The notes under the pieces are model-generated. The model did not search any database and was not told the DNA's origin. It worked only from the letters and a program-made list of their open reading frames with translations. The position numbers were made by a program, and so were the translations under genes. DNA of 63,883 nt, counting the filler, from Welwitschia mirabilis (lineage: Eukaryota), in NCBI GenBank assembly GCA_051453625.1. It is 6 parts of one record of this genome, joined end to end, with 100 filler letters (N's around TTAATTAATTAA, not from the genome) between each part and the next. Parts side by side here need not be neighbours in the genome. Positions count along the whole stretch, not along the records: positions 15,993 to 29,651 come from JBOZIK010000001.1; 5 more parts are not named here. One strand, given 5' to 3'. This document shows, piece by piece, positions 3,001 to 33,400 of this stretch; positions within the stretch are counted from its first letter, which is position 1; every line of letters begins with the position of its first letter.

Positions 3001-3946
3001 TTAAAGTGATAAGATTAGATTCATTCAATCTTAAGACATTCAAATGTCTATGAACTTCATTTGAAGGAAGATGCTTTAGTTTTTTGTGTTTTCTTTTAAT
3101 GTGTTAGTCTTCGGTTATTGGGGGTGTTCTTTCTTATCTTTCATCTCATTTCTTCACCTTCATCTTTACGAGTGTATGGTCATGTGGGATTTATTTTGAA
3201 GGAAGAAACAAGAAAAGAAAATAAAAGGAAAAAAAGAAAACAATGAAAGAAAAAAATAATGACCATGACTTATTATTTCTATGCTAAATACATGGTCACC
3301 ATGATGTCCTACCATGCCAGGGTAAATTTTCCTAAGAGGGATCTTTGGCAAAGTTGGTAGCTATGGGGACTCCACTAGGAGTCAGTTAGCCATGCTTCAC
3401 GAGTCCCTATTTCTCTGACTGTGGTTGCACTTCCCTCATCATGGATTAAAATAAAATGCTTTGAGGCTACAAGATTAGTGATGTTCCCGATGTCATCAGA
3501 GGTATTGCTTGTTTCCTAGGCTTATTATGCTTATAGTATTCCCACACAGTTATTTAACTTTTAAGGATTTAGGTGTGTTTTTGGGTGTTAGCAGGTGAGT
3601 TCATTTCCAGTAGCTTTTAATCTTATCAATCATTGTTTCAAAACATTAGTTACTTAGCATCATCATGATCATTACCTTTTCAAGTGGTACTTTATGAAGA
3701 TTTTACGTTATGTTATGTATCCTTCATCAGGTGATTTTATGATTTCTTCCATAAGGGTTTGTAGGTTTGAATTTAAGGTAGGTACACAATCTTCCTCATG
3801 TTCCCAAGTTGTCCATTTCCGTTTTATTCTGCTTAGTTGTTTTCTTAGGTATTTTAAAGTCATTTCTGTACCTTTTCATCACAAATGCTTAGGATTTAAT
3901 CATTTAAAAGTTTTCTAGTTAATTTTTATTTTTCATTTGTAATTTT
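1..3946 (+). repeat. Diverged ~0.9-kb direct repeat (1-916 vs ~3031-3946) inside a decayed retroelement region
   Basis: The two blocks align by eye at an offset of ~3030 (e.g. atgctaaatacatggtca.catgatgtccctacc in both). Confidence 0.85.
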
Positions 3947-8787: not shown

Positions 8788-11700
8788 GTATGCATGTTTT
8801 GCTTAGTGATTACCTAGTTTTTAAATTCCCTCGAGTTCTATTACAGTGAATAATTTGTACTTTGTCTAGCATGGGATTCCAATTTCATTGCAGAACTCAA
8901 GGCAGTCAATTGCGATAGATATGGAATGAACTTGTTCATTTCAAGCCAAAAGGCATTTTTGCAGTGCAACTGAAAGTACAATATGCAAAACCCCTTCCGT
9001 ATAGACAAGGATAGGATGATATTTGACGATGTTGTGACAGATGTGAACAGTTGCTTTCTGAATCTACATGATATATCGCAATTTTAATGATCGATTTGCT
9101 TAGTCATTTTGATCAAGTCAAGAATTAGTTATCGGTTATAAAACATAATGCAGCGACTTTATTTCTTGGGAATCTAGTTCTTGATGTGTGAACTCTTTGT
9201 CTGGTTTAGGCATTGCTTGTCTCAGATTTTGGCCCCAAAACTGCAAGTGCCATAGTAGAATCTTTGAGGAGTCAAATTTTATCTGGAAAGCTTAAATCTG
9301 GAGAAGATATCAAGGTAACTATTGTGCGGTGTTTCATGTGTGATTGCTGGTCGAATATATGTCTGATCCCACACTTTTTCCAGGTTGCATTGAAGAAGAA
9401 AGTGATTGGATTATTGACCCAAAAAGTTAAAAGTACAGAGCTTCAGTTTGGATATAAGTATGGTTTCTTTGTAATTTGAAATTTAACGTGTACAATCTAT
9501 TGGATCTTTAGGGCTTTTAATCTCTAATGTTCTGCAATTTTGTTCTTCCCTGTCTTTAGACGGCCAACTGTGATCATGGTTGTTGGTGTCAATGGAGGAG
9601 GGAAGACTACATCTATAGGTACTTAGCTCAGTATCTTTTCTTGATGTAATCTTGTAAACACTGAAATTTTTGGGACAAAATAATTTGTATTGATTGTGCT
9701 ACTGCATCAGTTTTTAGGAAGTTTGCACATAACTACATTCTTGGTTGCTCTTGACTTTGTTATTCCAAAACTGAAATTGGTTAACATGATCACTGATTCC
9801 TTTTTCCTTTTTACTTGTAGGAAAACTTGCTTATCGTCTCAAAAAAGAGGGAGTCAAGGTGCCATTTTTTAATACAACCCTTAGGTTACAGGCCATAAGG
9901 CCTTTGTCATTACTTTGTTTTGTGTTGCTATGCATAATATTTGATCTGATCTTATATATAAAAAGTCCTCAATTGTTCCTTGAGCATTAAACTCAAACTT
10001 GCTTGGGACAAAGTTTTGCAATTCCTGTATGAAATATTTTTAATCTCATTGTTGCTTGTAACTTGAAAATTTGCATTCATCCTTGGTGTATATCTTTGTG
10101 AATAATTGAATACAATACTCCTTCAACAATAGTCTTCACTCCCATTGAGAGAATGATGTTAGGGTTGATTATCATGGCACCCAGACACAAAACTTCCAGC
10201 CTGAGTTGAGATGTCTTAAGACCGAAAAGTAAAAGTGTACAAAATTCAGAATGTGGCAGAATAACAACGAGGCACAGTTTTTGAAAAGATAAGAAGACTT
10301 GATATTTAAATGGATTATTTAATATGGTGGTCTTTTCTCATACAAGGTTCTGTGGGCTCATGCTGCTTTCCAGTCTATTTCAATACAAATTTGCTTTTTC
10401 CATAGGGAACTTTTGAGACATGTCAAGGATCAATACCGTTTCTTTTTCCCTGTAGACCTTCTTTTCCAAGAATTATAGAAAGATTTGCAGGTGAACCACT
10501 TTGTAAGGGAAACAGAGTTTTGTTAAACAATATACAAAAGCAGTGGTTCTTCTAAAATTCTTTCATTAGCTTTTAATTGTTGGAACTTACTAAATAAATG
10601 TTTTTGACTGTACTATCTGTCAGTTGTTATATAGACTTCTAGAGCTTATGCTAGCTTTTCTTTTGCTACAAGGTTCTACTGGCAGCTGGTGATACATTTC
10701 GAGCAGCGGCAAAAGATCAGCTTGAAGTATGGGCGAAAAGGACTGATTCTGATATTGTCATAGGTGAAGGGCAAAGGCCCAAACCTTCTTCAGGTACATG
10801 TTGCTCAATGTATGAATCGTCTCATGTGACAATTTGCTTGATAACCATCATAGCTTTTGCCGTTTATAGATTCATTTGCATCCTTAATGCTTTTGTATTT
10901 CAGTTTTGTCACAGACTGTACAAAAGGCAAAGAAAGAAAACTATGATGTGGTACTCTGTGATACCTCTGGCCGTAAGTATAGAACTTTACCTAAAATTGT
11001 GTGCCAATACTAGAATGTATTCAGCTGGCATGTTTGAGCTGAATCAGTGTTTCTACGGCAGGTCTTCACACTGATTTTGAGCTGATGGACCAACTTGTCG
11101 CATGCAAAAAGGCTATTAATAAAGTCTTATCAACTGCTCCAAATGTGAGTTCTTGAAACATAGTCTGATCAAAATCAAGATTTATTTGAAGAGCCCTTCT
11201 TTGAATCAAGGAATACTTAAAATGTCTTTTGTAATGTTATTGGTTTGCACTGCAAATTGTTTCCTACCTTACATTATGGCTCTGCATGTTTTAAAGGATG
11301 GGTCATAGATCAAGTGTTGATATCATAGTTTTAAAGTGTGGATCAAGGCCAGAATTGAGTTTCTGTTTTGAAATGTAAAATTGTGGAATCCCTAGGGAGT
11401 TATTAAAAAAAAGAAAAAAAAGAGAGAAAATGCATTCTTTTAAAAAGACTTTTTTTCCCAGATAATGATATTTTGATGTTTATTAGGCTGAAAAACACCA
11501 TAATAATGACAGTATGTTATACAATAACCAAATGTACACAATTAGACATAAAACACACCCATTTTCATAACATAACCGAATACTAATGGTCCACACATAT
11601 AGAAGCAAAAATCCACCAAGGCCAAACCCAAATATCCAATAATAATAATGTCACAAAATAAATCTGGAACATCATAAAAGTCAGACACAAAAAAGTCAAG

Positions 11701-14700: not shown

Positions 14701-17700
14701 TTGTGGGTGCTCACCTATCTTATGTCTCTTCAAACTGGGTTTCAAATCCTTTAAATGGTATCAAAGCCAATGAGGGTTCATTGCTTCACTACAACCCCTC
14801 ANNNNNNNNNNNNNNNNNNNNNNNNNNNNNNNNNNNNNNNNNNNNNNNNNNNNNNNNNNNNNNNNNNNNNNNNNNNNNNNNNNNNNNNNNNNNNNNNNNN
14901 NNNNNNNNNNNNNNNNNNNNNNNNNNNNNNNNNNNNNNNNNNNNNNNNNNNNNNNNNNNNNNNNNNNNNNNNNNNNNNNNNNNNNNNNNNNNNNNNNNNN
15001 NNNNNNNNNNNNNNNNNNNNNNNNNNNNNNNNNNNNNNNNNNNNNNNNNNNNNNNNNNNNNNNNNNNNNNNNNNNNNNNNGAGGATCATAAATAGAGATC
15101 ACGCAGGGAGGATGTCAACTGAGAGAAGGATGAGTCCTCGCACTACAAACATGAACGGGAACGCGACAAGGACAAACATTGAGACAGAGATAGAGACAAA
15201 GACAAAGACAGAGAGAGGGATTTGGAGAAGAAAGGAAGGGATCAATGAAGGTCTGAGAAAGAAAAGGAAAGAGATCGAGATTCTTCTGATAAACATAGCC
15301 GGGAGAAGGATTATCTCAAGCACAGAGATGCAAAGGATCGTGACCGATTAAGAAAGGGTAAGATCATGAGATTTCTAAAATAAATAAGATGTACTTCGAT
15401 TCTGATTTCCGCTTTGGAAATGGAAAGATTCATCAGCAGGAAAAGAAGCCTAAAACAAAGAGTGTTAGCAGTCTGGATGTTGTAGGCACTGTTCAGTTTG
15501 GTTCATTGGAAGCACTTAATGCAAAGATTGAATACTTCTAGAGTTTTGGGTGGTATGTTGGCATTTTAACCTCTTATTTTTAATTAAAAGCCCTAGTTTC
15601 TTATTAGTTGCAAAGCCTTCATTTGTTTAAATAAAACCATTGGTTATGAAGGGGGTGACATGAATGGTAGTCTTAATAGTCCCAACATGAGTTTTTTAAA
15701 AAACAAATCTTTATTGTATTTCTTAGAAGAGCATCATATCCCATCCCCGTTGGAACATTATTGTAAAGGTCACTTATAATGTGAAGAAGGCACCTTGCTA
15801 TTCCCCTTTCAAATTTGTTTAATTTTAAAATGTAAAGGAGTTGGAAACTTTGAGATGCCTATGTGAAAGGCATGGATGTTTCAAGGCGAAGANNNNNNNN
15901 NNNNNNNNNNNNNNNNNNNNNNNNNNNNNNNNNNNNTTAATTAATTAANNNNNNNNNNNNNNNNNNNNNNNNNNNNNNNNNNNNNNNNNNNNTATCTTCT
16001 TTTTTAGCATTTTTTTTTTATGTCTATAATCAAAAGATTATTTTTTTCTCACATGTCAAATAAATATTAAAATCCATTAGATTTGCAATTTTGGTTTTTT
16101 TTAAAAAAAACAACAATATATTTTGACTATTTCCATAATATATCTCTGGTTACAAATGTTTAATTTAATGAGAACAGAATAAATCATGAATTAAGGGCCT
16201 TAGATTTCATTTTTAGTAGATATCAATTCATTTTTTTTAATTTATCCTTAGGTTGTATTGTTGTTTCTTCGCATTACGAAAATCGAAAACTCGATTGATG
16301 TTTCACTGTAGTCGCATCACGTTGTTATGATCTTTCATGTTCAATATTTATTAAATATTACCTAAAAAAAGGAGTATTGTCTCGTGATTAGGTTTCTTTT
16401 TTTTAAAGAATTGGAAATTCACAGAAATTCCATTTTTATTTTATTTATTTATTTATTTTTTATTTTCGTATTAAGTGGATGAAATTTTGGTAAAAGTCTA
16501 GATTCTTATAAAACAGTATATCGTACTACTTAATTTTGGCTAAACATCACCAAAATCGATATAACGTTGCAAAAAAAAAATAGCAATAGATCTGGCGCTA
16601 GAAGGAGGGTGTTAAACAAAATTCGATCATCATTAGACAAATCAAAAATCATTTGATCGTTACGAACAAAATTTGTCGTAACATAATCTAGATATACCAC
16701 CATGGCATTCTCAATTACAAAATGTATGTATGGCATTTTTTGATTGTGAACATACTTTTGCCCAAGAGCATCCAAAATCTCTCTTCCATTCATCCCCGAT
16801 TCTTCAAAAGATTTGATTCCAATCTAAGTTTGAAAGAAATCCACTAACAAAATAAACAATAGAGAATATCGATTAAAAAAAAAAAAAAGAAATGTTGGAA
16901 ACAATCTCGGAAATGAATCAAAAAAGTAAACAAATTGAGTAAGAGTAATTGTACCTATGAAATCACTTCGAATCTTGAGTAGATTTCAATTTGGATTGCT
17001 TTAAGATGCATTTTCAATGAAGCTCGAACCAGGGAATTCATTGGAAGCCACAACAATGCATTTCTCTAAAAGAAACCTTGAAAATTTGGGTTTTAACATT
17101 TATTATTCTATTTTTTCTGTGGTATGATTCTAAAGCTTGTGGAATCACCAGAATCGGGATTTTGGTGATTCTGCTTTAAAGTATGGTTTTGGCTTGGGAA
17201 TCACTATTCTAATGTGATTCAACATCTTGCAGTCCAGAATCATCGAAATTGCGATTCTGCTCCACGTTTCCAAACCATGGTTGATATAAGAGTGTCCACA
17301 TTAAATATAGTCTTTCATTTGCCACTGATGTCACATTCAATTTCATTAATTTGTTAACAACAAAGGTTGCTTTAGATCTATTGTTTATTGTCTGACAACC
17401 TCATTAATGGTAGTTTTAGACATATTCTCATAAGTGAATGCATTAATAATTAAGTTGGAAGCATCAAAAGACTTGGATAGTTTGAAAACTAGATGTAAAG
17501 GGTGAAGCCCATCATGGGGAAGGTCGGAAGAATGCAATGTAGAGTAGTGGATGAGGATAACTGATGTAATTGAGGTAATGTTATGAATGACATTGAAAGC
17601 AAATGGAAAATACCAATGAACTGATCAAATAGACAATGAAATTTAAGAAGTAATAATCACAACAAATAAACATACAATTCCAACGACAAGATTCTTTCAC

Positions 17701-20700
17701 AACAGCCCTTAATTACTGCTTCAAACAAGCATGAATAGAAAGAAGCTCATGAATGCTCCAGTAATCAATTTTAAAGGGTGATGTGGAACATGGTAGGCCA
17801 CACAAATGGACTTTTTTAGAATAGGTTCATGATCTTCAGAGTTCTAATTGCTAATCTTTATGTTACCACACTCTTAAAATATTTGCTTGTTAACCTTATT
17901 TTATCATACTCTTTTGGCAATTTTGATTTTACTAGCCAACTTTAGTTATCAGACATTTTAGATTTGTGGTTTTCGTTTGTTCTCTTGGTTGTTTTCTCAA
18001 ACATTATTGTTTATAACTGTTGGGATGCTTTTGCTTTATTTAACCTTAGGAAGGCCTTATTTTGTTTGTACATATTCATGTGGATTAGTGTACTTCTTCA
18101 AGGGCTTATATATGCTTAAATGCTTTATGTGTTTAAGGCATCATTTTTCACTTTTTTGAACAAGAGAACATTCTGCGGAGTATTCAAAGATAGACTGAAA
18201 ATAGAGCAAAAATGGGGGTGAAAGGGCCCCTGGGAAAATAGGCGAAGAATGGGAAACTGACTATCTAGGAGACCATTCTGCAGTAAATGCAAAGATGAAC
18301 TATAGAGTAGGGAAACTGGGGGCGAAAACGCCCCTAAGTACTAGAAGTGACAGAAACTGAAATTAGGCTAGAGCAAAGACCTGAAGTATGGAGGATTATT
18401 ATCCTCTACAAAAAGGAAAGAGATTGCCATGATTATGTTCTAGTAAGAATCGGCCCATTTTATCTGACAACACCTCAAAAGCCTGATTAACCTCTTTGAA
18501 TTCTTCGACACCTGCTTGATTTTTATTTGGATTCAATCTCAGTGCTTTCTTTCTATAACTAGACCTGATAGCTTGTGGAAGGGCTCTATGAGAGATTCCC
18601 AAAGTGACAAATGGGCATCTCTTTAGCCCGTGAATTGTTGCAAGCATGACCTGTCATTTTGCAGTGTTCATGTTTATACTTTCCTATGGATTATGCTGCC
18701 TTTCTTTTGAAGAGGAATCCATGGTTGAATTTTGGGCAGGACTAGGGCTCCTTTCCGGCTGAGGGGAAGCTTGGCCATGTGGTTGCTCCCTCTGCTCCTG
18801 GGAGTCAGTTGGTATCTACTCTTGAGCTGTCTCCTTCTGGGCTGGAGGCGAATTCGGCTCCTCTGTCTGTGGTTCTAAGGGCGAAGTCGCCCCTTGCTGA
18901 GAGCTGGGATTTCCTTATGCAACGTTCCCCTCAGATTGAAGGGCTTCTTTCGTGGTAGCTGTTCTCTTAGATTTTCTCCTTGGAGGAGTCTGTTGGGGAA
19001 GTTGTCGCGAGGGGGGAGAAGGGGCTTCTCTTGCCCTAATCTCATTAGCTACCCTCCAAATCACCAAAATTAATCCTAAATGCCTAGTTGTATCTTTTCG
19101 TCAAAGGGCCTGAACAAAGAAGAAGGGCAAATTCACCTGGTCCCCTAGGTCCAGGGCTTTAAGAGAAGCGAAGTGTAGTCTTGAAAGCTTTGAGGAACAA
19201 TCGGATTGAATGAAGTATCGGTCGATTAAGTCTACACCCAAGCCCCAAGGGGGCGGAAGCGCCTTCCGGCTAATGTGTCCAGTAAGCAGCTTAGGGACAC
19301 CACCAGGAAAGAAATGGAGTGCCTCTCGCTGCCTTCGGCTTCCAAGGAGTATCCTTTCTCCAACTGCAAGGATTTCCAGCAGTCTGGAAAGAGTTTTTCT
19401 AGTTATTTCAATAGGAATTCTTTTAAAGGTTGTGCGCTGCCCTCTCCAACATCTGTAAAATGGGGCGATATCGATCCTTGGTTCTCCCTTAAGTTTGTAT
19501 AGGAGGGTTCCCCATCTCACTGCCTGCACTTTGTCTCACAGGTCTGGGCATCCTTCGAATAGGTCGAGATCAGACGGCTCAACGGTGCGTGTAGCTCCCA
19601 TTGCAATTCTGATTTGAGAATGGTAACGCTTGATTCTCCTAGCGGTATTTAATGGAAATGGTAAGGGGGCACTATTGAAAATCAAATCATTTCTGTTCTC
19701 CAAATCTGTCAATAAGTCAAGCGAATCCCATCATTTAAGCAAGTGTCAGATGTGTTGCAAGTCTGGTAGTACTTCTTTATTATTGTCATTAACCCTTTAC
19801 TCTAACTGCATTGATGAAACAGGTGGTTTGCATTTTCAGGACAAGATTGACAGACAGGACAGGCTATTTCCACTGGGAAACACCTCTTATGCAATTGATC
19901 TCTAGTGAGGACTTTATGGCAATCCTTCAACCAACAGAACATTTTAATTTTTTTTGGAATTTGGCCCTTCCAGAATTTCTGGTAGGAGTCATCTTTCCCA
20001 TATTTCTTTTGGAGGATCTGTTTGACTGTATCTACATGACAAATGTTTAAGTCTAGTAGGTGTCTTCGAGCTTTGCTGAGATGTTTTCTCAGATAGGATT
20101 CTCCCTGATCAGTGCTCCAGTTTGGGTATTTGTGATTGATTAAGTCACTCCAAGGTTGTCCTCCCTCGGTCAATCTTTTCAAGATCTGATGAGCTCCTTT
20201 AAGAAGACAGTCCTTTGGTCTCTGGATCCCCCAGCCTCTTGATTTCTTGGATCGATTTATTGTCTCCCATTTGCAAAGGTGAATATGGTTTTGGTCTTTA
20301 CCTCTAGACCAAATGAATTCCTTCAGGATTCTGATAATTTTTTGAATGATGTTCTTTGGGGGGTGATAACGGAAGCTATGTATTTGAAGGAAGAGATTAG
20401 ACATGAGTTTATCTTTGCTTTGGAGGAGTGTTCAAGGCATCATTTGAAATATCTTCTATGGTTAGTATTTATTTACATTTATGGCATACAGTTCACACAT
20501 GCTGCAAGGAGATGGATATCTAACGCAGGGGCATCCTCTTATTGGAACAATTTTACTTGGAAGATGGTATTGACACAAGAGTGGAGTTATTTGGCATTTC
20601 AAAGGGGAATATGGTTGATTCATTGGATATTTGAGTAGCTCCAGGTGATTTTGGACTTGTAATTGATGATTGACAATGGTTAATTGACAATTTGGTTGAT

Positions 20701-23700
20701 CTCCATTGTAGCTTAACTGCTCCACTGTTATGAACTAGAAACTGTCAAAATTACTTTGAACTTGCTTGATTGACTGCACATACATATGCAAACTTAGGAC
20801 TATCTTACCCGAATTTGCTTTAGTATGCATTTTTGAAGGCAGGCCAGGACTCTTTCAGAGCTGATAGACCAAAATGATCTAGAAATTCAAAATTTAATGT
20901 CTAAAGTTTGTTTTCTCAGTTGTTTGTACATGCAAAGGAATTCTCTAATGGCCATGTATGTGTTCATTCAATTTCTGAAATTTTTTAGGTGTTTCCATTT
21001 GCTAAACACAGATTGCAAAATCTTGGACTTACATTCTCCAATAGTCACTATAATTGGTTTTCATTTAAAAGGAGATTGAGAGCTCATTGCAGAGGGTTCT
21101 GTTTTATTTCTTTGGTTCTCTCTAGCAGTGCTATTACATAGTTCTCTATCTACCTCTTGTTCTAAATTTCTGGTCAGTCTTCAATAGAATGGAACTTGAA
21201 GCCAAAAGTTTCTTCTAGTTTACTTTCTTTTTATGTTGTAGCTCATTGCTTGCCCTGCTATGAAAATAATAATAAAGGGAAAAAAAAGCAGAAGTGGCAG
21301 AGGGGAGAAGGAGAGAGGTGTAAAGTACCTGTCTAGGTTATATGGTCATTTACGTATGGGAGGTTATTTAATTATAAGGGAGCTAATGTACTTTTAGGGT
21401 TTGTGACCTTGATGTGAGCTTATAAAAGAGAGATTTGCGTTTGAGGTCAGTTGTATGTAACGGCAAATGTAATATGAACTCTAAGATTGAGTGATTGTTT
21501 GCCCTATTAAAGCTATTAAGGACAACTTTTGTCTTTACCCTTTTTTTCCCTTTTTTAAATCAAATTACGAGCTCTACACTGTTCTGTGAACATAGGGTGA
21601 AAAGAACCCAAATCATGTTAATTCTTATCTAACCACAACTCTATTTCATTGTTTCTTTTGGCTATGTTCTTGGATAACATTCATTACTATGTTTTTAACA
21701 TTCTTGGGTATATTGTTTGTCAAATTTCATCTATGTCCTTGGTTGAGCCTTAACTGAAAGTGTTCATGGTCTTGTGGGTGATTAATAAAAGTGTTTTTGA
21801 TGATTGCTCTTGGGAAAATAATTGGTATGGTTGTACTTTCAGTTCTTCACCAAAGTTTATGGGAACAAGGGAGAAAGAAATTTAATTCCTTCCAAGTATG
21901 AAGTAGGCATCAGCTAAACCATTATAATTTTTTGTTTGCTTCCACTTATTGTGCGTTTTTGAAAGAACCTAAAATCCAGATCTATGATGGCAAGTACACC
22001 ACTAACAATAGGAGTGTGGGCTCTTTGCAACATGAACCACATTAGATGAAAAATATTCTTGTAGGCAATTCTTTCTTGTGGCTCCCAAGCAACTACTTCA
22101 TGCCTCAAAAGTCTTCAAAAAGTAGAAAGCTTCTTCCTCTGAAAATGGGGAAGAAAAAAGTCTGTAACCTGAAGGGCTAGAGAAAAAGGAAGGCATGATG
22201 ATCTTTGCATGAGAAAGGTCTAGTTGCCCAATGCTTTCACCATGAAAAACTAGACAAGAATGAAGGGGCAAGAAAATCAAACATGGAAATAATACAGTTA
22301 CATTTCAAAGTATTGTTCCTTTTCAAATTTGCCCACTTTCCTTGATGACTAACAAGCTTCCAAGCTCTATAAAGGATCAATGTAGGCTCAGCGTTAAGCA
22401 AACCTCTACAGAATTAGGCTTTGCAAACCTAGGAGCAACATGAAGATTAAAGGGTAGGACTCTTTCTTTTCTGCTTGTTCAAGAATTTTCTAACATCATA
22501 AGGGGGTACCATCTTGGATAAGCCATGGTTGTTGCTTGGCTTAGGGTTAAAATCCTTGGTTACACTTGACCGTGCAGGATATCTTCTTAGCTTTAGGAGA
22601 ATATCAATAACTTTTTAGCAATTCTTGCAAAACAAGAGAAGCCAACTCTTCCCTTTCATTAACAAGTTGAGATAAAATATTAGATCTTCCATACCCAAGG
22701 GAAGGAATCCTACATCAGCATTATATTTCTTTATATGATAGCCAGGATAGGCACCTATCAAGGATGTAATTAAGATGATACTTATTGTTTTGTTCCATAT
22801 CTTGACATCATAGATGAAACATTTCAAATTGTCACTTTTACATAACCACATGTAATTTTTTCCCCATAAAGTTTGGGTCAAGGGGATGTCAAACTTGAAA
22901 CTTTAGTAACCAAATCTTTCCTTAGGAGTACAACCACTATGATTGCCCAAATAAATAACTTAATGGTGACAAGGGTCTTATAGTGTGCCAAGCAAGACAT
23001 CCAAAGTTTTGAATCCATGCCCTTCTATATGGAGGGCGAATGTTTTACCAATTGGAAATAAACACTCTCATCACTCATTTAGTGTTATATGTTTTCCTTA
23101 AAATCAAAGGCATAATGTGTATTGCTCAAATGTCACATGCACTTTCATCACCCGTGTATAAATATATTCTATTTAACCTCCAGATTCTTCTCTCTTACCC
23201 CTCATGATCCTCTCATGTGGTTATGCCCTCTTCTACTAGTGGTTTGTAACAGAGGTATCTAAACCTTCAATTTTATTCAATAAAGAGCACTTTTAATATG
23301 TATCACTTTGTTCCAAATTTTTCATCCCATTCACACTTCCACATCCCTAAGGTTTTTCTAAAACCAACAGATTTTGATGGCCTTCTCTTATAATCAGTAA
23401 CAATGATGATTTTTGAAACTAATGTTACAATGTTAGGAAACCATACTGCACTTATCAGAGTCAATAGTTTGCTTGGCTGGATGAACACCTTTGTTTTTAT
23501 GATTTAAAGTTACAAAGCTCGATTGCATGTGACCATCTGTTAAATGAGACATCAGAATAGTCAACATATTATTGATTTAGGTAGTCTTTAAAAGAACCAC
23601 ATCTGATCTAGATAGCTGAAATTCAAAACAATGCAATATTTTCCTTTAATGGAATGCTTTCTTTCCTTATCTTTCGTCATGATTGACAGGAAATTTTACT

Positions 23701-23758
23701 AGTACTTGATGGCACAACTGGATTGAATATGCTTACACAGGCAAAGGAGTTCAATGAG
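8479..23758 (+). CDS. cpFtsY: Chloroplast signal recognition particle receptor (cpFtsY), multi-exon, 3'-incomplete in this window
   Basis: Exons 8479-8787, 9210-9314, 9384-9457, 9560-9618, 9821-9858, 10673-10793, 10904-10972, 11062-11144 and 23690-23758. All introns are GT..AG with compatible phases, giving 927 nt = 309 aa. The translation has a Ser/Thr/Arg-rich transit-peptide-like N-terminus, FFTRLGRVIKEKAKSDVEKIFSGFSKTR, ALLVSDFGPK, G1 [19 protein letters not shown], G3 CDTSGRLHT and EILLVLDGTTGLNML. The G4 (TKLD) exon and the last exon were not found. Confidence 0.95.
9210..9314 (+). CDS. cpFtsY: cpFtsY exon 2
   Basis: tttag|ALLVSDFGPKTASAIVESLRSQILSGKLKSGEDIK|gtaact. Confidence 0.92.
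9384..9457 (+). CDS. cpFtsY: cpFtsY exon 3
   Basis: ttccag|VALKKKVIGLLTQKVKSTELQFGY|gtatgg. Confidence 0.9.
9560..9618 (+). CDS. cpFtsY: cpFtsY exon 4 (P-loop G1)
   Basis: tttag|[19 protein letters not shown]|gtactt. Confidence 0.93.
9821..9858 (+). CDS. cpFtsY: cpFtsY exon 5
   Basis: ttgtag|GKLAYRLKKEGVK|gtgcca. Confidence 0.9.
10673..10793 (+). CDS. cpFtsY: cpFtsY exon 6
   Basis: acaag|[40 protein letters not shown]|gtacat. Confidence 0.93.
10904..10972 (+). CDS. cpFtsY: cpFtsY exon 7
   Basis: tttcag|VLSQTVQKAKKENYDVVLCDTSG|gtaagt. Confidence 0.93.
11062..11144 (+). CDS. cpFtsY: cpFtsY exon 8
   Basis: ggcag|RLHTDFELMDQLVACKKAINKVLSTAPN|gtgagt. Confidence 0.92.
14538..15892 (+). mobile_element. 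Non-autonomous LTR retroelement copy A, nested in the hAT, carrying Arg/Asp-rich cargo
   Basis: LTR 3' end, then aa, then PBS TGGTATCAAAGCC (tRNA-iMet type) at 14756-14768. PPT ttggttatgaagggggTG at 15640-15657, followed by a 3' LTR cut by the contig linker. No gag/pol is visible. The 5' boundary lies in or before the N gap (possibly 14284). Confidence 0.75.
15081..15383 (+). pseudogene. Decayed fragment of an RD/RE-rich (splicing-factor-like) coding sequence
   Basis: Frame EDHK*RSRREDVN*EKDESSHYKHERERDKDKH*DRDRDKDKDRERDLEKKGRDQ*RSEKEKERDRDSSDKHSREKD...; the stops are of CGA/CAG>TGA/TAG type. Parent gene not identified. Confidence 0.6.
15893..15992. other. Artificial contig linker (44N-TTAATTAATTAA-44N); also at 29652-29751, 35585-35684, 47042-47141, 62490-62589
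   Basis: Five identical 100-nt blocks; the 12-mer gives stop codons in all six frames. Confidence 0.97.
18152..20730 (-). mobile_element. 5'-truncated L1-type LINE; ORF2 C-terminal part with an extension ending in a J-domain
   Basis: ORF 19802-20404 carries FIW..IHLCKWETI..KKSRGWGI and zf-RVT (IPKKIKMFCWL..LTRDQL..CPVC..ENANHLFHQC), followed by WQIWR-RNDLIF. A short poly(A)-like 3' end (cttgttcaaaaaa on -) lies at ~18152-18165. No TSD was found and the 5' end is approximate. Confidence 0.85.
18399..18647 (-). pseudogene. DnaJ-type J-domain at the C-terminus of the LINE ORF2 frame
   Basis: CPFVTLGISHRALPQAIRSSYRKKALRLNPNKNQAGVEEFKEVNQAFEVLSDKMGR matches the J-domain pattern (Y.VLG...A....IK..YRK.AL..HPDKN.....FKEI..AYEVLSD...R); the HPD position reads NPN. 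Confidence 0.85.
23690..23758 (+). CDS. cpFtsY: cpFtsY exon 9
   Basis: gacag|EILLVLDGTTGLNMLTQAKEFNE|gtagtt, after a ~12.5-kb intron. Confidence 0.92.
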
Positions 23759-25218
23759 GTAGTTACAAATTCTGCATTTAAGGCAAATACATTTTGACCA
23801 GTTTTTACAAACGGCAATCTTTATTAGCAAATGTACATATATGCCATAAATCTTTTCCATGGATAGATGCTTGAAATTCCTATGTAAAACAGCTATGCTT
23901 TATGATATTGATATAAATAATCTACAGCCTTGATACTTCTTATCAGAATGTTATGTTTTATGTCAGATGTGTCAAAATGGCTGCTTTTGGTTTTCAGTGC
24001 TTTAAAAAAACCACAAGTAAATTCTTAATATTAACAGCAGCACAAGCTGCATAAATATCTAGCATATATTGAGACTAGTGTAATGTGTGAGATTTATGGT
24101 TTTGTTTCTTTTTGGAAGGGCTACACAAACTTTTGAGGAAAATTTTAGACTTTTTAATACTAACTGTCCTGGAAAATATAGAAGATAAACAACAGCAGAG
24201 AAAATCAAGTGTTTATCACAAAGGGTGTCAATTTTATACATTTCACTGCACTGTTTTCCTATGGTTATGGGGATGAAAGAATGATGAAAGACTCAGAAGT
24301 CATTTGCAATGTGATGCATTCAGTTCTCAGAATATTTCATGTAATTCATTTTTATTGCTTGGTTTATGAGTTGTTCGTATCACCCATGTCATCACTCAAG
24401 GGTGTGAGGTGTTGAGGAGAGCAGATTTCAGAGCATGGTGTAGAACCTGGAGAAGGAATTCATTATTGGCTTAAGGATAGGCAGAATGTATTTCAATGGG
24501 ATAACTCTGGATACCATGAAGCCAATATTTACTTTCCACTATGATACCACTCTGTAAAGACACAATAGTTATTTTCCTGTTTCAGGAAAATTGTAATATT
24601 TGTGAAGTGTGGTACATATAAGAGGAAAGTATGTTTTAAATCCACTTAACTAAGTCGATGAATTGTTAGTCAGTCAAGTCTGATCCACATGAAAAGAGCA
24701 GGTTTATTTTATGCTACTGAGTTATCATTGTTTATGTAAAGGACCTCCACCAAACAGCATTGGCATACAAAGCGGTTTTGGGTAGCACACACTAAGGGAT
24801 TGAAAAGCCCACGTGAATGTTAGTATACATTATTATTTGATGACCACATAGTGATCGTGACTTCTGAGAGGTATCTGATGCTCTTTATAGGGTAGCCACC
24901 TCATGGCAATGCAATTGGCAGTTAAACCATGCCTCAAATAGCTCTCTTCGGTGCTGACTAAAGATTACACATTCAATTTAGTTTGAAATTGATTTAATGT
25001 TTTGGTACTATTTAAATGCTGCAGTTTAATAGATGCTGTTGATACTCAAAATTGTTGGGTATGTTTGGCATAGGTAATGCCACTGTTTTATGTTTTCCAA
25101 AGAAGGGAAATTATCATTTCTAAAGTCATTGATAAAGGGCTTGGAAATAAAAATAATGCAAGTATTAGCATTATTTTGTAAGAGTCTAAATTAGCCATCC
25201 CTTAACTTTAGGGATTGG

Positions 25219-25512
25219 TTAAGTCAAGTTTTTTTTTGGGAAATAGTTGTTTGATCCATGTTTTTTGGAACTAAGATAAGACTTGTGAAGAAAGTTCAGA
25301 ATGAGATCAGGGTGAAAGTTATGAGACATCACGGATAAACTAACCTTGAAAGATAATGAAAAACATGCCCAGTTGTTGTCCCCGACATGGCCACGAGATG
25401 GGGCATCCATGTTTAAAAAATTATTTTTTATGTTTTGAATACATGATGTTTATCATTTCATGGATATCAATTTATGATTTTCTATTTGTGTCTTAGGCTT
25501 ACAAACCCTTCA
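25219..25512 (+). mobile_element. Partial LTR (3' portion) of the same cargo-carrying LTR family, no PBS after it
   Basis: Aligns with 27150-27409 and ends ...aaacccttCA, followed by unrelated sequence. Confidence 0.75.
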
Positions 25513-26189
25513 ATTCTCTTCCCCTTGAGAGGTTTCCTCCTAGAAACTTGCCATTAGCTTAGGTTTGTATTGGAAGATCTCACTCATTAACTTTCATGTT
25601 GCTTAACTCTTTAGTTTTCCTGACCACAGAATCTTGTATAACTCAATTATTTTTCTTGAATTACCATTTGTTTTTGGTTTAATATTTGTGGGACAATTTA
25701 GAAAATTAATTATAGCTTGATCTGGAGTAACCTTGGGTCTATTAGAAACACATATGATTTGCAAAATCAAGATGCACCAAGGATTAGATCATTGACAAGG
25801 AGATAAATTCAATGAATAAGGAATCTAGATACTTCACCAATCATTCTAACAATGTAATGTTTTTCACAAGAATTAAGATCAAGCAAGGTTAGTGATAGAC
25901 AAGGAGTTTAAAAGAATTTGAAGAAATTACGAGGGGCAAGAAACCAAAAACTTTCATGGATGTGAAAGGATGTAAGAGCCTAGGATGATAACACTAAATT
26001 CGATGAGAAATTAACCAATTTCAAGCATCCAACAAGATAAAGGAGTTATAAGTTAGCGAGATGACCATGTTATTGATAGGAGGGATGTAATATTTGATAT
26101 TTTAGGCTAAGTATGGAAAAGTTTTAATGTAACACTCCCAAACCATTTTGCTCACTAGTAATTAATGTAAAATAAGAAAATGTTATAGG

Positions 26190-26615
26190 CCAAAGAATTA
26201 TACTTGGCTAATACTCAATTTAGTTCAATACACAAATTGGAGATAATATACTTAATTGATTACTCATCTCTAAACATTAGCACATTAATAACTTGATTTA
26301 ATATGGTTAGGGAGAATTCTGCTTGGCTAATACTCAATTTAGTTCAATACACAAAATGGAGATAATATACTCAATTTATTGCTTATGTCTAAACGTTAGC
26401 ACACTTAAAACACTTAATAACTTGATTTAGTATGGGTAGAGAATGAAATAGTGGTTAACCCATCACAAATAGATAGCTTAGGGAATGAAATAAACCGGAG
26501 ATAATATACTCAATTTATTGCTCATGTCTAAAGATTAGCACACTTAATAACTTGATTTAATATGAGTAGGGAATGAAATAGTGGTTAACACATCATAAGT
26601 AGATAGCTTAGGGAA
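26190..26615. repeat. Degenerate tandem repeat, ~120-175-bp units, about 3 copies
   Basis: Recurring ggagataatatact.aatt.att.ctcat.tctaaa..ttagcaca..ttaataacttgattta.tatg blocks. Confidence 0.75.
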
Positions 26616-27148
26616 CATTAAAAGTCTGCCATTTTTTTACTTTGACATAGGAAAGGAATAGAAACGGTAAGTGACTCAATCTCAAAATCTCCACATTTTT
26701 AAGAATTTCTTATAACCAAGATTACCATTGCATTTGACCTGTCTAATGTATTTTTGTGTGCACCTTTGTAAGGGAAAGCCTTCATTATTCTGCGAGACAC
26801 TCTATAAAGCCTTCATTATTTTGTGGGCTTTCTCTTGCTGTACTCTGATCTTCCGTGAATTCTTTCATATCCCTGGTCATGGCTGGAGCGTTGCGTAAGC
26901 ATGAACTAACAAAGAGAACAAGCGTCGGAAAGAAAGAGAAGTGGGCGGTCTTTATGAAAGGATCTTGGACGTTTACACAGTTCTAAGCTTAACAGCTTGG
27001 ACAATCTTATGATTACTCGCACAGTATTTTCCTAAAAAAGAGAAACAGNNNNNNNNNNNNNNNNNNNNNNNNNNNNNNNNNNNNNNNNNNNNNNNNNNNN
27101 NNNNNNNNNNNNNNNNNNNNNNNNNNNNNNNNNNNNNNNNNNNNNNNN

Positions 27149-29651
27149 AGATCCATGTTTTTTGGATCTAAGATGAGACTTGTGAGGAAAGCTTAGAATG
27201 AGATTATGGTGGAAGTTATGAGACATCATATATAAATTAACTTTGAAAGATAATGAAAAGCATGCCCACCCATTGTGTCGAGCATGGCCAAGGGCTAGGG
27301 CATCTATGTTTGAAAAATTATTTTTTATGTTTTGAACACATGATGTTTATCAATTCATTGGTATCAATTTATGATTTTCTGTCTGTGTCTTGTGCTTTTA
27401 AACCCTTCAAATGGTATCAAAGCCTCCTGAGTTATTGGTTAATCACCAGGCTCAGTAAGAATCCATTCCAAATGAGCCATGGCGAAGAAAGATCTCACGT
27501 AATGTTTACAGGAGTGGCTTGGACTCCCTGCAAATACGAAACAGAACCAGAAATGCCATGCGACTGTTGTTGCCTTTCATGTAGAAATTTCAGAGGATTT
27601 TGGGGTCGAATTCAAATCTGAAATGTCATGGCTGTCCTGAGCGCTTCCCCCCTTCAGGGAGGGAAGGGTGAACGTGCTGTTGCAACAACAGAAGAAGAAA
27701 AGAAAAAGAGAGGGAAAGGCAAGGGAACAATAGATAAAAGAGGTGTAAAAGACGACCTTTCCGAGCTCACAAAGAGCTTCCAGAAGAAGCTCTAGGGTGT
27801 TGCATTTTTCATTGCTCCTTCTCCACCTCCATCGGCATCAATAGGCAAGATTGCAGGAAGAAGATGACATCGAGGATGAGGTTTTAGGCGGGGAAAATCA
27901 TCATTACTTGAAGAATTCAGAGCTTGATTGCCCCAATTGGACAAGGAAGGAGGCAAAGCCTTCGCTGGAAGGAATGAGAAGTGATCTCGCAGAAATTAGT
28001 GGGAGTGTGAAGACTAGAATTTCAAGGTTGGCTTTGAAGCTATTTCCTTTCAAGGGACACGCTTCTGATGTAGACGATGAGGGGCAAACAAGAGAAGAGG
28101 AGGAAGATGATTCAGACGATGAAGAAGAAGAAAAGAAGAAGAAAAAGAAGAAGAAGAGGAGAAGCTTCAGAAGGAGCCCGTTAAGCCTGTTGATGGAATT
28201 ATGGAGGAGGTTTTGTCCTTTGCCAAGAACATTTCAATGCATCTAGAGAGTTGGCTAGATTTTCCTTTATGCTCAGACGACAATGATCTTGATGATTTTG
28301 AAATGTCAGATATTCAACAAGAACATGCCTTGGCTATTGAGCACTTAGACCTCGGGTTGGCAACCCTTAAGATTGAGCTTTGTCTAGGATTAATGAGTCA
28401 AGGATGCTTTTGGAAGATTTACTTTGTGCTTTTAACTTCCCAGCTCAATAAGCAAGATACTTTTCTACTGTCTATGCCTCAGATAGTAGAGACCAGAGTC
28501 TTGTTAATGCAAGGGTTGTGAAAGAGAACTAGATCAGAGGAAGGAAATACTGAGAATGAATTCTCCCAAATTGAAGGAATTCAGTCAGGGCTTTCAGATG
28601 AACAAAAAATCTCAAATTCCTTCTTAGATCCTGAGGGAAAAGTAAAAGCTTCAAAGGTTGTGTTAGTGCAAGTTGGAGGCCCTATAGGTGGCAGCGATTT
28701 TCATCATGATGAACAGATTGGTAAAATGCCAAACCAAAAGTCAATGGATAATGCTTTTATTTCTTATGAGGAGTCCACTTCTAAGAATAAGAATGTGTTG
28801 GCCAGGACTTTGAAATTCTTGGATATTAATTATAAGGACGAGGATAATGTAGATGAATGGTTAGAGGAAAAGCCATACGGGGGTAATGTTGGTTAACAAT
28901 CTCAAGCGCGATTGACAAATAAAGATGATGTTTCATTTAGTGATCTTGGAGTTGAGGATGATAGTGGGTTGCAAACGACAAATGGACACCTAAAAATGCT
29001 CAATTCTTGTAGAATTTCAAGGTTATATAATATTAGAGAAATACAGAAGTTGCTACCCAGATCGATGAGACTTCCAAATGGAGAATGCGTCATCCTCCCC
29101 AAAGTGTGAAATGTAGATGAGGAGAAACGCACAACAAATTCTTTTGATTTGGCCAAAGCAGAAGGAGAATAAGGATATGAAAGCGCAGTGAAGTGTTGTG
29201 GAGTGGAGGAACACTATGTCATTAAAAGTGGTTTGATTCCTTAAATTTTTGTTATTTTTAACATTATCTATTATACCAAATTCCAATTGGTATTAAGGGG
29301 GTGAACTATAAAATTCTTTTAGTAGTAAGGTATTTTAAATTCCACATTTATAACCCCATTTAAAAGTGTATAAAGGTTTCCTGGAGTATCAAGAAGGTAC
29401 CTTTCTATCCCCTCTACTATTTGTATGAGTAAAAATGTGATGAAAAGGAGTTATATGTTTTAAGATACCCATGTGAGAGGCATGGATGTAGCTTCAAAGT
29501 GAAGAAGCTTGTCTAATGTGTAGCTCAAAACAAGGAAAGGGAACACTTACATTGTTCCACTTTACAAGAGAAAAAGGTAGAGTGAAGGAGGACTATAGGA
29601 GGAGTCCTTAAAGCTATGTTTGGAGAACTCCTTTAAGAGTTGGAAGGAGAA
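27149..29651 (+). mobile_element. Non-autonomous LTR retroelement copy B carrying a BSD-domain retrocopy
   Basis: 5' LTR end ...cccttCA at 27409, then aa, then PBS TGGTATCAAAGCC at 27412-27424. PPT ttggtattaagggggTG at 29287-29303. The 3' LTR shares motifs with copy A (aagg.acctt.ctat.ccc; atgtga.aggcatggatgt..caa.g.gaaga). Confidence 0.8.
27623..29200 (+). pseudogene. Processed pseudogene of a plant BSD-domain-containing protein
   Basis: MSWLS(*) start at 27623, GVKDDLSELT..L(*)GVAFFIAP, SDLAEISG, BSD core NISMHLESWLDFPL..DFEMSDIQQEHALAIE..ELC..MSQGCFWKIYFVLL..LLSMPQ, and C-terminal DDVSFSDL. No intron-sized interruptions; stops and frameshifts are present. The 3' end is approximate. Confidence 0.88.
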
Positions 29652-30419
29652 NNNNNNNNNNNNNNNNNNNNNNNNNNNNNNNNNNNNNNNNNNNNTTAAT
29701 TAATTAANNNNNNNNNNNNNNNNNNNNNNNNNNNNNNNNNNNNNNNNNNNNCTAGAATTTTTTGACAAATAACAATAAAAGTATTTGTTATGGAAAAAAA
29801 TCAAAATGTATGTATTATTTTTTAAAAAAATATTGGCTTAAGAACCTTGATTGTCTATGCTAAAAGTTCCCATTAAACACCTTTTCATGCATTGATACCA
29901 TAACAAAGACAAAAAGGGTTTTTTGTATGTAATTTCAAATTAAATTTACAGAACCTTCAGCATGAGGCAGTGTTCCAAGAAAATGGTCTACATGTATACA
30001 TGTCCAAAAATAGTTTCATGTTTTCNNNNNNNNNNNNNNNNNNNNNNNNNNNNNNNNNNNNNNNNNNNNNNNNNNNNNNNNNNNNNNNNNNNNNNNNNNN
30101 NNNNNNNNNNNNNNNNNNNNNNNNNNNNNNNNNNNNNNNNNNNNNNNNNNNNNNNNNNNNNNNNNNNNNNNNNNNNNNNNNNNNNNNNNNNNNNNNNNNN
30201 NNNNNNNNNNNNNNNNNNNNNNNNNNNNNNNNNNNNNCCCATTCCCATTTCCATTCCCATTCTCATTCCATCTTCATTTTCAAATTAAGAGAGGGCTGGA
30301 ATGCTAAATTTGGGCAACTATGATAATGGATTTTGGATGTCAGACATTCCTGCCTATGTTGTTGCTTCTTTTTTTGGTTGCTTTTCATCTTTCTGTGACA
30401 TACGAGCATAACTTTGCTA

Positions 30420-33400
30420 CTTGAGAAACAAGACAATGTTGAGCGAGAGATCTGATGAGTGCGCAAGAAAAAAGCAAGGTCGCGCTTTCGTTTGTGAGCT
30501 CGTTTTTAAGCAAGGTTGTGCATCTGTCACGCGTGACTTTTTTAAGGTCTCTTCATAGAGAGGCGGCAGCTAGTTGCCAACTGTCTTCACTGCGCCAACT
30601 AACGACTGAGAAATAGTCGTTTCTGAGAATTCAAGGTGAGTAGTCACCTAGATGGTGGCTAGTCGCTGCCTCTTTAAACACTGAGACCACTTCGAGGTGT
30701 TTCCTTCTTTCCTTTTTTGAAGGACGTTGCTTGCCTGTCTTAGCCTTAGGAGGAGATCCGTCTGAAAAACCTATTCCCATCCTCAAGACCTACTCCACCT
30801 TTCGTTTTTGGATACCCTAGAGTAACTTGGAAGATACCTTCTTCCCTTTGAAGTCCTCCCCTCTCTTACCTTTTACACTGCACCCAACCACCTTTATTTA
30901 TTTATTTATTTTTTGACCAACTCCTTTTTTTTTGTGAAGTTTCTAGTTTATCTTTGCATCGTGCTTTACACCATGTCTTGGTTATTCTATACCTTGTGGG
31001 TTCATTTTGGCTACTTGAATTCTCACGGCCCTCTAAAACAAGTCTAGGTTGTGTCACCCTAGAAAGGAGACATTGTTGTTCTTTGCAAGCCTCGAAAAAG
31101 GAATCCACAACAACAACAACAAAGCTAAAATTGAAAGTATTGGCTACACAGGTGGAGGTGACCTAACAAAAATTAATGATGTGTTATTTATTTATTTGTA
31201 AATGGCTTGAAACGTAATCTCTCATGTATTGAACAAATTTGTGACAAAAGTCACAAAGTGATATTTGACAGTAACAAATGTGAAGTTAGAGATGGTACTT
31301 CTAGTCATGTGTTCTTAGTAGCTAAGAGAAATGGGAATGTCTAACGTATAGAGCAAACATCTGAGAATGGTTGTGTGTCCACTGAAGTTAATGGCAATGT
31401 GCTATGGCATCAAAGGTTTGGACACATTGACTATGAGAGCTGAAAGAAACTTGCAAAAAGCAAATTGGTAAGAGGTCCATCTAAGATCTCTTTTACTAAT
31501 CAATCTATTTGTGATGCTTGTCAGAAAGGTAAACAGACTGGATCTTCTATTAAGAGCAAAGCTCATATCATAACATTTACACCCTTAAAGATAATCCACA
31601 TGGACTGGGTTGGACTAATTCAAATGGTAAGTCTATTAGGTAGACATTATTTCATGGTTGTGGTAGATGACTATTTAAGGTTTAATTCGTTTGCATTTTT
31701 GCACTGAAAATCAGATGCATTTCATGCTTCTATTAAAATTTGCAAAAAGATTCAGACTAAAAAAGGTGATGTTATTTTACAAGAAAAATAGAAGTAATCG
31801 TGGAGGAGAATTTGAAAATTTTTGCACTAACCTTGGCATTGAGCATGACTTTTCAACACTTAAAGACACCTCAGCAAAATGAAATTGCTGAAAGTTATAA
31901 TAGAGCTCTCTGGGACATGGCAAGCATGGGGTTGAATGACAAAGAGGTGCCTGAGAAGTTTTCAGCTAAAGCCATACATACAATTCGCTATAAGGCCAGG
32001 TACTAAAAGGACACCATGCAAGCTATGGGACGGTAAAAAGTCAGATATTTCATACGTCAATACTTTGGCCAGTAAGTTATTTATTTTAAAAGATAGAGAT
32101 AACTTTGGTAAATTTGATTCAAGATTTGATTATAATGTTGGGTTACTCTTTGTCAAGAAGGGCTTATGGAATCTTTAACAAGAGAACTCTAACTGTTGAA
32201 GAATATGTGAATGTAAAAATAAATGATGCTCTAATACATTGCCAACATGATGAATTTGCTGGTGACACTTCACAACACTTATTTTATAACAAAGTGTATT
32301 TTAGGCATTAACCAAGTTCAAGCACCAAAGCACTGAAGGATCACCTTCTTGATTTATTTATGGGTAAATTGATCAGAGGGCAAGTTCCAGAAGCCTATTA
32401 AAGAATTTCATTGCTTATGTTTCTTTTGTATCCCGGCTTGAACCTAAGACCTATGAGCTGAAAAGAATCATGAGTGTGATCTAGCAAGGCAAGAGGATCT
32501 AGACAATTTAAAAGCGACCAGGTATGGGAGTTAGTTCCTAAGCCTTCTGATAAAAATATGACTGGAACCAAGTGGGCTTATAGGGGAAAAATCAATGAAA
32601 AGAATGTCCTCACCAAAAACAAAGCCAAACTTGTAGCATAGGTGTATACGTAAATTGAAGGTATTGATTTGGGTGAGACTTTTGCCCTTGTGGCTCGATT
32701 AGGATCAAGAAATTTTCTTGCATTTGCTTGTTACAAAAAGTTCAAAATTTTTGAAATGGATGTTAAAAGTGCTTTTCTAAATGGGTCAATAGAAAAAGAA
32801 GAATATGTTGCTCAACCTAAAGACTTCATTGGTCCTCAACATCTAAATTATGTCCGTAAGTTGGAAAAGGCTTTACATGGTCTGAAACAAGCTCCTAGAG
32901 CTTGGTATGACAAATTATCAAAATTTTTAATTGAAAATGGTTATACTACAGGAAGTACTGATAAGACTTTACTTAGAAAGTCAATTCAAGATGATTTTAT
33001 ATTAGTTTTGATATATGTGGATGACATCATTTTCAGATCATCAGATGAAAAACTTTCATTAGAGTTTGCAAATTTGATGGAATCAAATTTTGAAATGAGC
33101 ATGATAGGTGAAGGGTACATGCTTCTGGACTTCAAATCAAGCAAAGGTAAAATAGCATTTTCATATCTCAGAGTAAACAGGCTTTTGATTTGATCAAAAA
33201 GTTTGGACTTGGAAATGCTAAAGTAGTTAGTAAACCCTTGTGTATGAATACAACATTAGACAAAGATAAAAATGATAAAGATGTTGATCAGAAATTGTAT
33301 AAAAGTATTATTGGAAGTTTGTTATATTTATCCATTAGTAGGTCCAATCTGGCATTTAGTGTTGGAGTTTTGCAAGATACCAAGTGAAGCGAAAAGAATT

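Follow-up and report, generated by a model that had tools for sequence, protein, structure and literature searches.

A J-domain within an abundant L1-type LINE family: a candidate built-in Hsp70 co-chaperone

A LINE insertion that encloses a J-domain

We analysed a 63,883-nt stretch of DNA from assembly GCA_051453625.1 (the window, to which all positions refer) and describe here a long interspersed nuclear element (LINE) on its minus strand, at 18147-20433. In this element the remnant of an L1-type second open reading frame (ORF2) is followed by a further domain (domain X), a low-complexity linker and a J-domain. A preliminary description of this DNA had proposed that ORF2 extends in frame into the J-domain, giving the retrotransposon a possible built-in Hsp70 co-chaperone. 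Our sequence comparisons show that the architecture is real and unusual; the co-chaperone reading is partly supported. The window has a GC content of 33% and contains 4332 N across 25 runs; the LINE sits in a gap-free block, 15993-27048. Its features are given below from the 5' to the 3' side of the element, where J frame denotes the minus-strand frame of the J-domain.

20434-20445, no strand: target-site duplication (TSD) on the 5' side of the minus-strand element, an exact 12-bp match to 18135-18146
19695-20433, minus strand: 5'-truncated L1-type ORF2 remnant, with the zf-RVT match at about 19805-20020 and stops at 19804-19802 and about 19711-19709
19692-19696, minus strand: private one-base deletion, at which the reading passes from the zf-RVT frame to that of X and J; the base is present in other copies
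19539-19694, minus strand: C-terminal tail of ORF2 (RNDLIFNS...CPDL), 52 stop-free codons when read in the J frame
19536-19538, minus strand: TGA between the ORF2 tail and X, a W in the homologue P0002
19104-19535, minus strand: domain X, an open frame of 144 codons, with 0 stops against 6.9 ± 2.6 in shuffles (P 0.001)
19101-19103, minus strand: TGA with C as the next base, closing X; either the stop was there ancestrally or it arose by nonsense mutation
18657-19100, minus strand: linker rich in Pro, Gln, Ser and Glu, 148 codons, 3 stops in the J frame
18402-18653, minus strand: J-domain ORF of 84 codons, with the Pfam match at about 18453-18608 and NPN at the HPD position, 18533-18525
18396-18401, minus strand: two TAA codons that end the J frame
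18159-18395, minus strand: 3' untranslated region (UTR), in which a GC hairpin motif occurs twice, at 18320-18335 and 18216-18231
18147-18158, minus strand: short A-rich tail, adjoining the downstream TSD copy
18135-18146, no strand: TSD on the 3' side, an exact 12-bp match to 20434-20445
TGA 19538-19536, TGA 19103-19101, TAA 18917-18915, TAG 18818-18816, TAG 18686-18684 and TGA 18656-18654, minus strand: internal stops of the J frame

Other copies of the element were surveyed by mapping public sequencing runs to 17000-22000 at 80% likeness: two DNA runs from two coded organisms (X1 and X3), a run whose kind is uncertain (X9) and an oligo-dT RNA run (X19). On this 5-kb stretch, 8966 contigs were mapped from X1 and 8683 from X3, most of them 80-95% alike to the window, with 5210 of the X1 contigs less than 90% alike. 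The depths given below are summed contig depths, which are not copy numbers. The states of single sites in other copies come from 40 differences listed out of 1221, and a site outside these 40 is evidence neither way.

The limits of the element are sharp. The direct repeat at its ends is still a 14/15 match when extended by three more bases. Shuffling gave a match of at least 12 bp 3 times in 3000, and among 353 control pairs taken at the same spacing from the window there was 1. A diverged contig (X3 record 9) ends its match at 18157, in the A-rich tail. Unique contigs end at 18208 and restart at 20459, and depth drops to single copy at both element ends, with values of 270-3437 (X1, X3) inside the block against about 7-15 outside. 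The start lies within ORF2, a 5' truncation. TSD, 3' A-rich tail, 5' truncation, zf-RVT and a dispersed multi-copy family are all hallmarks of LINEs, and 18147-20433 is one 5'-truncated, decayed L1-type LINE insertion made by target-primed reverse transcription. The GC content of its segments is 40-49%, compared with 33% for the whole window. We found no second copy of the element within the window, and Tandem Repeats Finder returned 0 rows for 18100-20500. The preliminary description had carried the LINE out to 20730, which the 12-bp TSD corrects to 20433. An ORF at 20462-20734, considered as part of the LINE reverse transcriptase (RT), was rejected: it lies outside the TSD, at single-copy depth, and has no Pfam match. 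Just upstream of the LINE, 21175-21675 is a lower-copy repeat with a depth of 17-98, against about 7 in its flanks, and with many joints.

Regarding the coding content, six pieces were scanned against Pfam, with cut-offs of 27.5 bits for zf-RVT and 27.8 bits for DnaJ. On the minus strand, the piece at 19802-20431 matched zf-RVT (PF13966, E 8.9e-13, 49.2 bits) and that at 18399-18653 matched DnaJ (PF00226, E 8.9e-13, 48.6 bits), above the gathering score, so the J-domain first recognised by reading the sequence is borne out; the remaining four of the six, which lie around and between these two, gave no Pfam family at E<=1. All 35 PDB matches at E<=0.001 are J-domain proteins, the best being dnj-12 (1.4e-10), DNAJA1 (2.6e-9), Sis1 (5e-9) and DNAJB1 (5.2e-9), and the ESM Atlas neighbours of the J ORF are generic DnaJ clusters only (28/30). 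In this copy the HPD tripeptide reads NPN. At 18533, AAT is replaced by CAT (N400 to H) in 93% (X1) and 94% (X3) of contig depth; the NPN of the window is partly private to this copy, and most copies have the H of HPD. The first of the two TAA codons at the end of the frame is TAC in 87% and 85% of depth, so that the family ORF probably ends at the second. As the preliminary description had placed it, the J-domain lies upstream of the LINE 3' end. Since it stands inside a single unit of TSD and A-rich tail, it moved together with the LINE.

The arrangement is not confined to this copy. Listed diverged contigs cover 18157-18500, 18519-18833, 18570-18997, 18772-19120, 19030-19327, 19111-19614, 19291-19634, 19647-20010 and 19795-20316, and they overlap across every junction of the block (X1, X3). 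Besides, the loose-end consensuses at 18449, 18652, 19692-19696 and 20410 are recognisably window sequence, more diverged. The order zf-RVT, X, linker and J is therefore family-wide, in a very abundant LINE family. A one-off 3' transduction or an independently inserted retrocopy, which the preliminary description had named as a way for its proposal to fail, was rejected: one TSD pair encloses LINE and J, the J segment has no TSD of its own, and it is colinear in diverged copies from two coded organisms. One could also argue that an L1 fragment simply came to lie beside an unrelated J-protein pseudogene or another transposon, and the resemblance of X to accessory-ORF domains of long terminal repeat (LTR) retrotransposons, itself a lead only, would fit this. 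Such a chance juxtaposition is hardly credible. It is already contradicted by the single TSD pair around the whole, by the diverged contigs and P0002 that bridge the junctions, and by the fall of depth to single copy exactly at both ends.

The reading frame from ORF2 to the J-domain

In the window, a one-base offset at 19694/19695 separates the zf-RVT frame (..QIWR) from the J frame (RNDLIFNS..). Other copies hold the absent base: it is inserted behind 19694 in 13 (X1), 10 (X3) and 6 (X9) contigs, and one extra base stands in the loose-end consensuses, built from 26-50 contigs each, that start at 19692, 19694 and 19696. Read by eye, the J frame of these consensuses, followed backwards, enters the zf-RVT-frame peptide. 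The frameshift at about 19695, which the preliminary description had postulated, is thus private to this copy, and the restored base joins ..QIWR to RNDLIFNS... Within the zf-RVT frame, the TAG at 19804-19802 is TGG in 59% (X1) and 44% (X3) of contig depth.

Beyond the frameshift, the tail of ORF2 leads into domain X. P0001 is a protein query derived from the window, and P0002 and P0003 are two database relatives of X. P0002 has 91 residues and its source is labelled as a Welwitschia mirabilis transcriptome assembly. BLASTP aligns P0001 with it gaplessly, with 55/91 identical residues (E 3e-36), and places query residue 65, the TGA between tail and X, opposite W22; the last 21 tail codons align with P0002 residues 1-21. 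Of 939 places in X1 where copies differ, 565 show C>T or G>A. Since such changes make stops and never remove them, an ancestral ORF2 stop in the tail should persist, and none is present. ORF2 is continuous with X in this lineage, as shown by the extra base at 19694/19695, the stop-free tail and the W of P0002 at the TGA.

Domain X itself has few relatives. No Pfam family was found for it at E<=1, and P0001, P0002 and P0003 gave no match to PF20167 or PF03078 at E<=10. A search of 1.84 billion representatives returned two matches only, P0002 (E 1.2e-16) and P0003 (E 4.5e-4). The latter has 129 residues, is 27% identical to X, carries no annotation and comes from a Logan contig of 2732 bp; it is a distant relative of X predicted as a small stand-alone protein. 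Among the ESM Atlas neighbours of X, 16/30 are PF20167 (Transposase_32) and 2/30 are ATHILA ORF-1, with a top score of 0.93. X may thus be kin to domains found in the accessory ORFs of LTR retrotransposons of the Athila type, a likeness of language-model features that serves as a lead and stays below profile thresholds. An AlphaFold2 model of X from a three-row alignment (pLDDT 41.4, pTM 0.30) was too poor for fold comparison.

From X to the J-domain, the same frame can be followed throughout. The minus frame from 19730 down to 18399 spans 444 codons with six internal stops, in line with the shared frame of about 430 codons previously described, and linker and J share the X frame with a spacing of 882 nt, a multiple of 3. 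Shuffled versions of 19694-18402 contain 22.7 ± 4.5 stops; none of 2000 came down to the six observed. Counted per frame with the J frame first, the stops number 0/2/5 in the tail, 0/6/7 in X, 3/7/9 in the linker and 0/4/9 in J, so that in each of the four segments neither of the other frames has as few stops as the J frame. In the linker, other copies have a 36-nt insertion at about 18819-18837 (five listed rows each total 36), and in one X3 contig the 54 nt at 18998-19053 are replaced by nine letters, a net deletion of 45 nt. In these two cases, the ones where the net size of a linker indel is known, it is divisible by 3, which favours one frame and one polypeptide. Length variants of 258, 93, 91 and 88 nt also occur among the copies, their inserted letters unread. 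The loose-end consensuses at 18449 and 18652 are, by eye, open in the J frame, and the latter has a sense codon for the window TGA at 18656-18654. The preliminary description had noted that a sense codon fits at every stop, as expected from deamination after insertion; this carries no weight as evidence, since any stop codon lies one transition from a sense codon.

Several observations weigh against a single polypeptide that would reach from ORF2 to J. The six stops interrupt the frame of this copy, and we saw no other copy in which zf-RVT, X, linker and J lie in an open frame, nor any intact or full-length copy with endonuclease and RT. A full-length ORF2-X-J protein was not found in word-index searches with P0001 at near, longer and shorter lengths (0 at E<=0.001 or 0.01, which is weak evidence), and a metagenome scan with P0001 gave 159 pattern matches, 0 of them confirmed. 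The linker is open in the J frame only at P 0.08 against shuffles, and its depth of 274-676 (X1, X3) is the lowest in the element. It is kept no better than the 3'UTR, and at 18879-18894 the hairpin motif of the 3'UTR occurs in it for a third time, there within the J frame. The D of HPD is N in this copy, and its position is not among the 40 listed differences. At 19706-19708, two X3 loose-end consensuses (46 and 50 contigs) read by eye TAG for the window CAG. The same two have TGG for a window TGA one codon upstream, and the area looks like one of hypermutable CHG and TGG sites, which would bias a simple consensus towards stops.

Some of these points would be expected if the J-domain belonged to a separate downstream ORF. 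ORF2-X would then end at the TGA 19103-19101, and J would be translated by re-initiation, a route shared with other LINEs that have several ORFs, and act on Hsp70 in trans, either as a J protein of about 90 residues from the Met codon 18671-18669 or as X-J from the Met at 19601-19599. That TGA may be an ancestral stop because X and P0003 end there: the phmmer match between them reaches residue 142 of 144 in X and 127 of 129 in P0003. The Met at 18671-18669 lies just upstream of J, about 20 codons before its first helix, a distance like that in host J-proteins with an N-terminal domain, and is also present, by eye, in the loose-end consensus at 18652, while P0002 starts at a Met equivalent to window Met 44; both starts fit separate ORFs, and for the element behind P0002 a separate start at Met 44 may be possible. 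The best PDB matches all have their J-domain at the N-terminus, and the poorly kept linker with its UTR-type hairpin fits here as well. Against separate translation, X, linker and J lie in one frame, in which the linker has three stops compared with seven and nine in the others, both linker indels of known net size keep the frame, and this copy has no stop on the way from the ORF2 tail to Met 44. Besides, a J-domain without a targeting part would bring no obvious benefit to the element. We regard a separate ORF as unlikely. Of the proposed in-frame extension from ORF2 to J, the colinearity, the private nature of the frameshift and the W at the first TGA stand, whereas a frame open through J was seen in no copy.

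Constraint on the J-domain and its possible role

Copies have preserved the J-domain to about the same degree as zf-RVT, whereas linker and 3'UTR are far less well preserved. Its depth is 2535-3437 (X1, X3), equal to the best bins of the zf-RVT region (940-3082 overall) and 5-30 times that of the linker and of the 3'UTR (about 70-530 at listed sites). A dead copy decays evenly along its length, so where some parts are more alike between copies than others, the main cause should be constraint on the lineages that are active. Composition could contribute to the difference. J and zf-RVT are lower in GC and CpG than X and linker, and slower deamination could explain part of their higher depth, which counts against reading that depth as constraint. 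The 3'UTR and J are similar in this respect (GC 0.43 and 0.40, CpG 1.6 and 1.2 per 100 nt), so composition alone does not explain the excess of J over the UTR.

These values bear on the possibility that J is a neutral passenger, in which 3' transduction or template switching brought the 5' portion of a transcript for a host class A/B J-protein into an ancestral master copy, and the segment has since been multiplied with the LINE, neither translated nor used. According to the accessible part of a review, L1 3' transduction is common (Goodier 2000, cited in PMC13317346), and the segment comprises the J-domain only, with no G/F, zinc-finger or client-binding region. NPN in this copy would also suit a passenger, as would the fact that no evidence of expression was found in the RNA run X19, which gave 38 reads at 80-95% likeness, on both strands, and none above 95%. 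A passenger should however have decayed like the UTR and linker, and at 80% likeness J shows instead the depth excess given above, on par with zf-RVT and over a 3'UTR of similar base composition. The H of HPD in 93-94% of depth and the location of J in the X frame are further points against it. Neutral carriage is thus, in our opinion, rather improbable.

The hairpin motif is a 16-nt GC-rich palindrome (stem GGGGCG/CGCCCC with a 4-nt loop, on the element strand), and its two 3'UTR copies lie 104 nt apart. It may be a recognition hairpin for the RT or, given the third copy, the trace of a UTR-derived linker. Folded as a whole, the 3'UTR is unremarkable (z -1.13) and is equalled by 24 of 200 shuffles. 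One contig each in X1, X3 and X9 skips 90 nt at 18222-18313, and copies seem to differ in their 3'UTR by a single repeat unit of about 90-104 nt.

How could a J-domain serve a LINE? J-domains are the established Hsp70-recruiting and ATPase-activating module, and tethering of Hsp70 is proposed for this reason. LINE ORF2 proteins (ORF2p) are large, scarce and hard to fold, and their dependence on chaperones has mostly been inferred from interaction studies. In the proposed mechanism, the coding region would run past the zf-RVT tail into the domain X of about 145 residues, followed by a low-complexity linker of about 150 residues, a class A/B-like J-domain, a stop, the 3'UTR and the A-tail. Active elements would make J as a portion of ORF2p, either fused to it directly or reached when ribosomes read through the TGA-C behind X. 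From there J would draw the cytosolic Hsp70 of the host to the element in cis, and Hsp70 would help to fold or remodel ORF2p or its ribonucleoprotein (RNP). A following C makes TGA a weak stop, and the extended replicases of retroviruses and plant viruses arise by read-through; at this codon, read-through would fit the evidence both for and against one polypeptide. Whether J is covalently part of ORF2p, by fusion or by read-through, is for us an even call. The fuller proposal, that this would be the first retrotransposon to encode its own J-protein, as an ORF2p with a C-terminal domain like that of Athila accessory ORFs, a disordered linker and a J-domain that loads Hsp70 in cis, is possible, though we think it doubtful; the module would then be present on every molecule or on a regulated read-through fraction.

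If cis recruitment is correct, a LINE family with its J-domain conserved would amount to a natural experiment in which retrotransposition proves to be limited by Hsp70 recruitment, and HPD mutants would offer a tractable handle on which step needs Hsp70. Thousands of transposon-borne J fragments could also inflate the 'DnaJ/HSP40' gene-family counts of plant annotations.

Elsewhere in the window, Pfam matches mark three further ORFs, all on the plus strand: 10655-11074, exon-like, matches an SRP54-type GTPase (E 1.8e-7); 28123-28521, also exon-like, has a BSD domain (E 6.1e-7); and 32654-33193 is a Ty1/copia RVT_2 fragment (E 5.7e-33). An artificial linker with stops in all six frames, N44-TTAATTAATTAA-N44, gives rise to identical spacers at five places, 15893-15992, 29652-29751, 35585-35684, 47042-47141 and 62490-62589. 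As these spacers join pieces of the window, adjoining window blocks may not be genomic neighbours.

Comparison with known systems

In agreement with the preliminary description, whose author knew of no such LINE, our literature searches by titles and the starts of abstracts found no LINE with a J-domain, although the repeat libraries that accompany gymnosperm genome papers as supplements could already contain the family. In the accessible parts of three papers, 'DnaJ' has 0 mentions in a 503-genome L1 survey (PMC5203782), 'chaperone' has 0 in a review from 2026 on how plant transposons capture genes (PMC13317346) and 'J-domain' has 0 in a gnetophyte genome paper (PMC8275611).

Additions to the C-terminus of ORF2 have precedents. 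Plant L1 elements with an added C-terminal RNase H, as an excerpt reports them (Smyshlyaev 2013, cited in PMC5203782), resemble the present element in being plant L1-type, in their zf-RVT and in carrying a host-type domain downstream of the RT; they differ in that here X, linker and J are added and that frame continuity to J is predicted only. Insect R1 LINEs, according to part of another report, have a C-terminal superfamily 1 (SF1) helicase domain in ORF2 (PMC4686597). This is again a LINE ORF2 that gained a whole foreign C-terminal domain, but clade, host and domain are different, and the source was viral there and apparently a host chaperone gene here.

Regarding domain X, PF20167 and PF03078 (ATHILA ORF-1) mark accessory ORFs of Athila-type LTR retrotransposons in the text available from PMC11728184. 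The additional ORFs of Athila/Tat elements are nearest to X by language-model features; unlike them, X lies in a LINE, is continuous with ORF2 and has no hmmscan match. On this feature likeness, a domain type otherwise tied to the accessory ORFs of LTR retrotransposons would now be seen in a LINE. If the label of P0002 is right and the window is of gnetophyte origin, the ORF2-X junction would predate a split whose age the accessible portion of the genome paper puts at more than 110 million years (PMC8275611).

L1 3' transduction also leaves non-LINE sequence between the coding region and the poly(A), inside the TSD, and in this it is like the present case; the difference is that the J segment is no one-off, being found in thousands of depth units from diverged contigs, and is kept better than its flanks. 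Compared with the class A/B Hsp40s (C. elegans dnj-12, human DNAJA1 and DNAJB1, and yeast Sis1), the likeness extends over about 56 residues (E 1.4e-10 to 5e-9), covering helices II-III and a short loop after HPD. The differences are that here only J is present, that it is C-terminal in the frame and not N-terminal, and that this copy has NPN.

Other replicating elements are coupled to Hsp70 as well. The large T antigen of polyomaviruses carries a J-domain, and the hepadnaviral RT depends on Hsp40/Hsp70, with hepadnaviruses using host J-proteins and encoding none. Both are, like the proposed element, replicating entities coupled to the Hsp70 of their host. The parallel is one of analogy: these are viruses and not LINEs, and the contexts share no homology.

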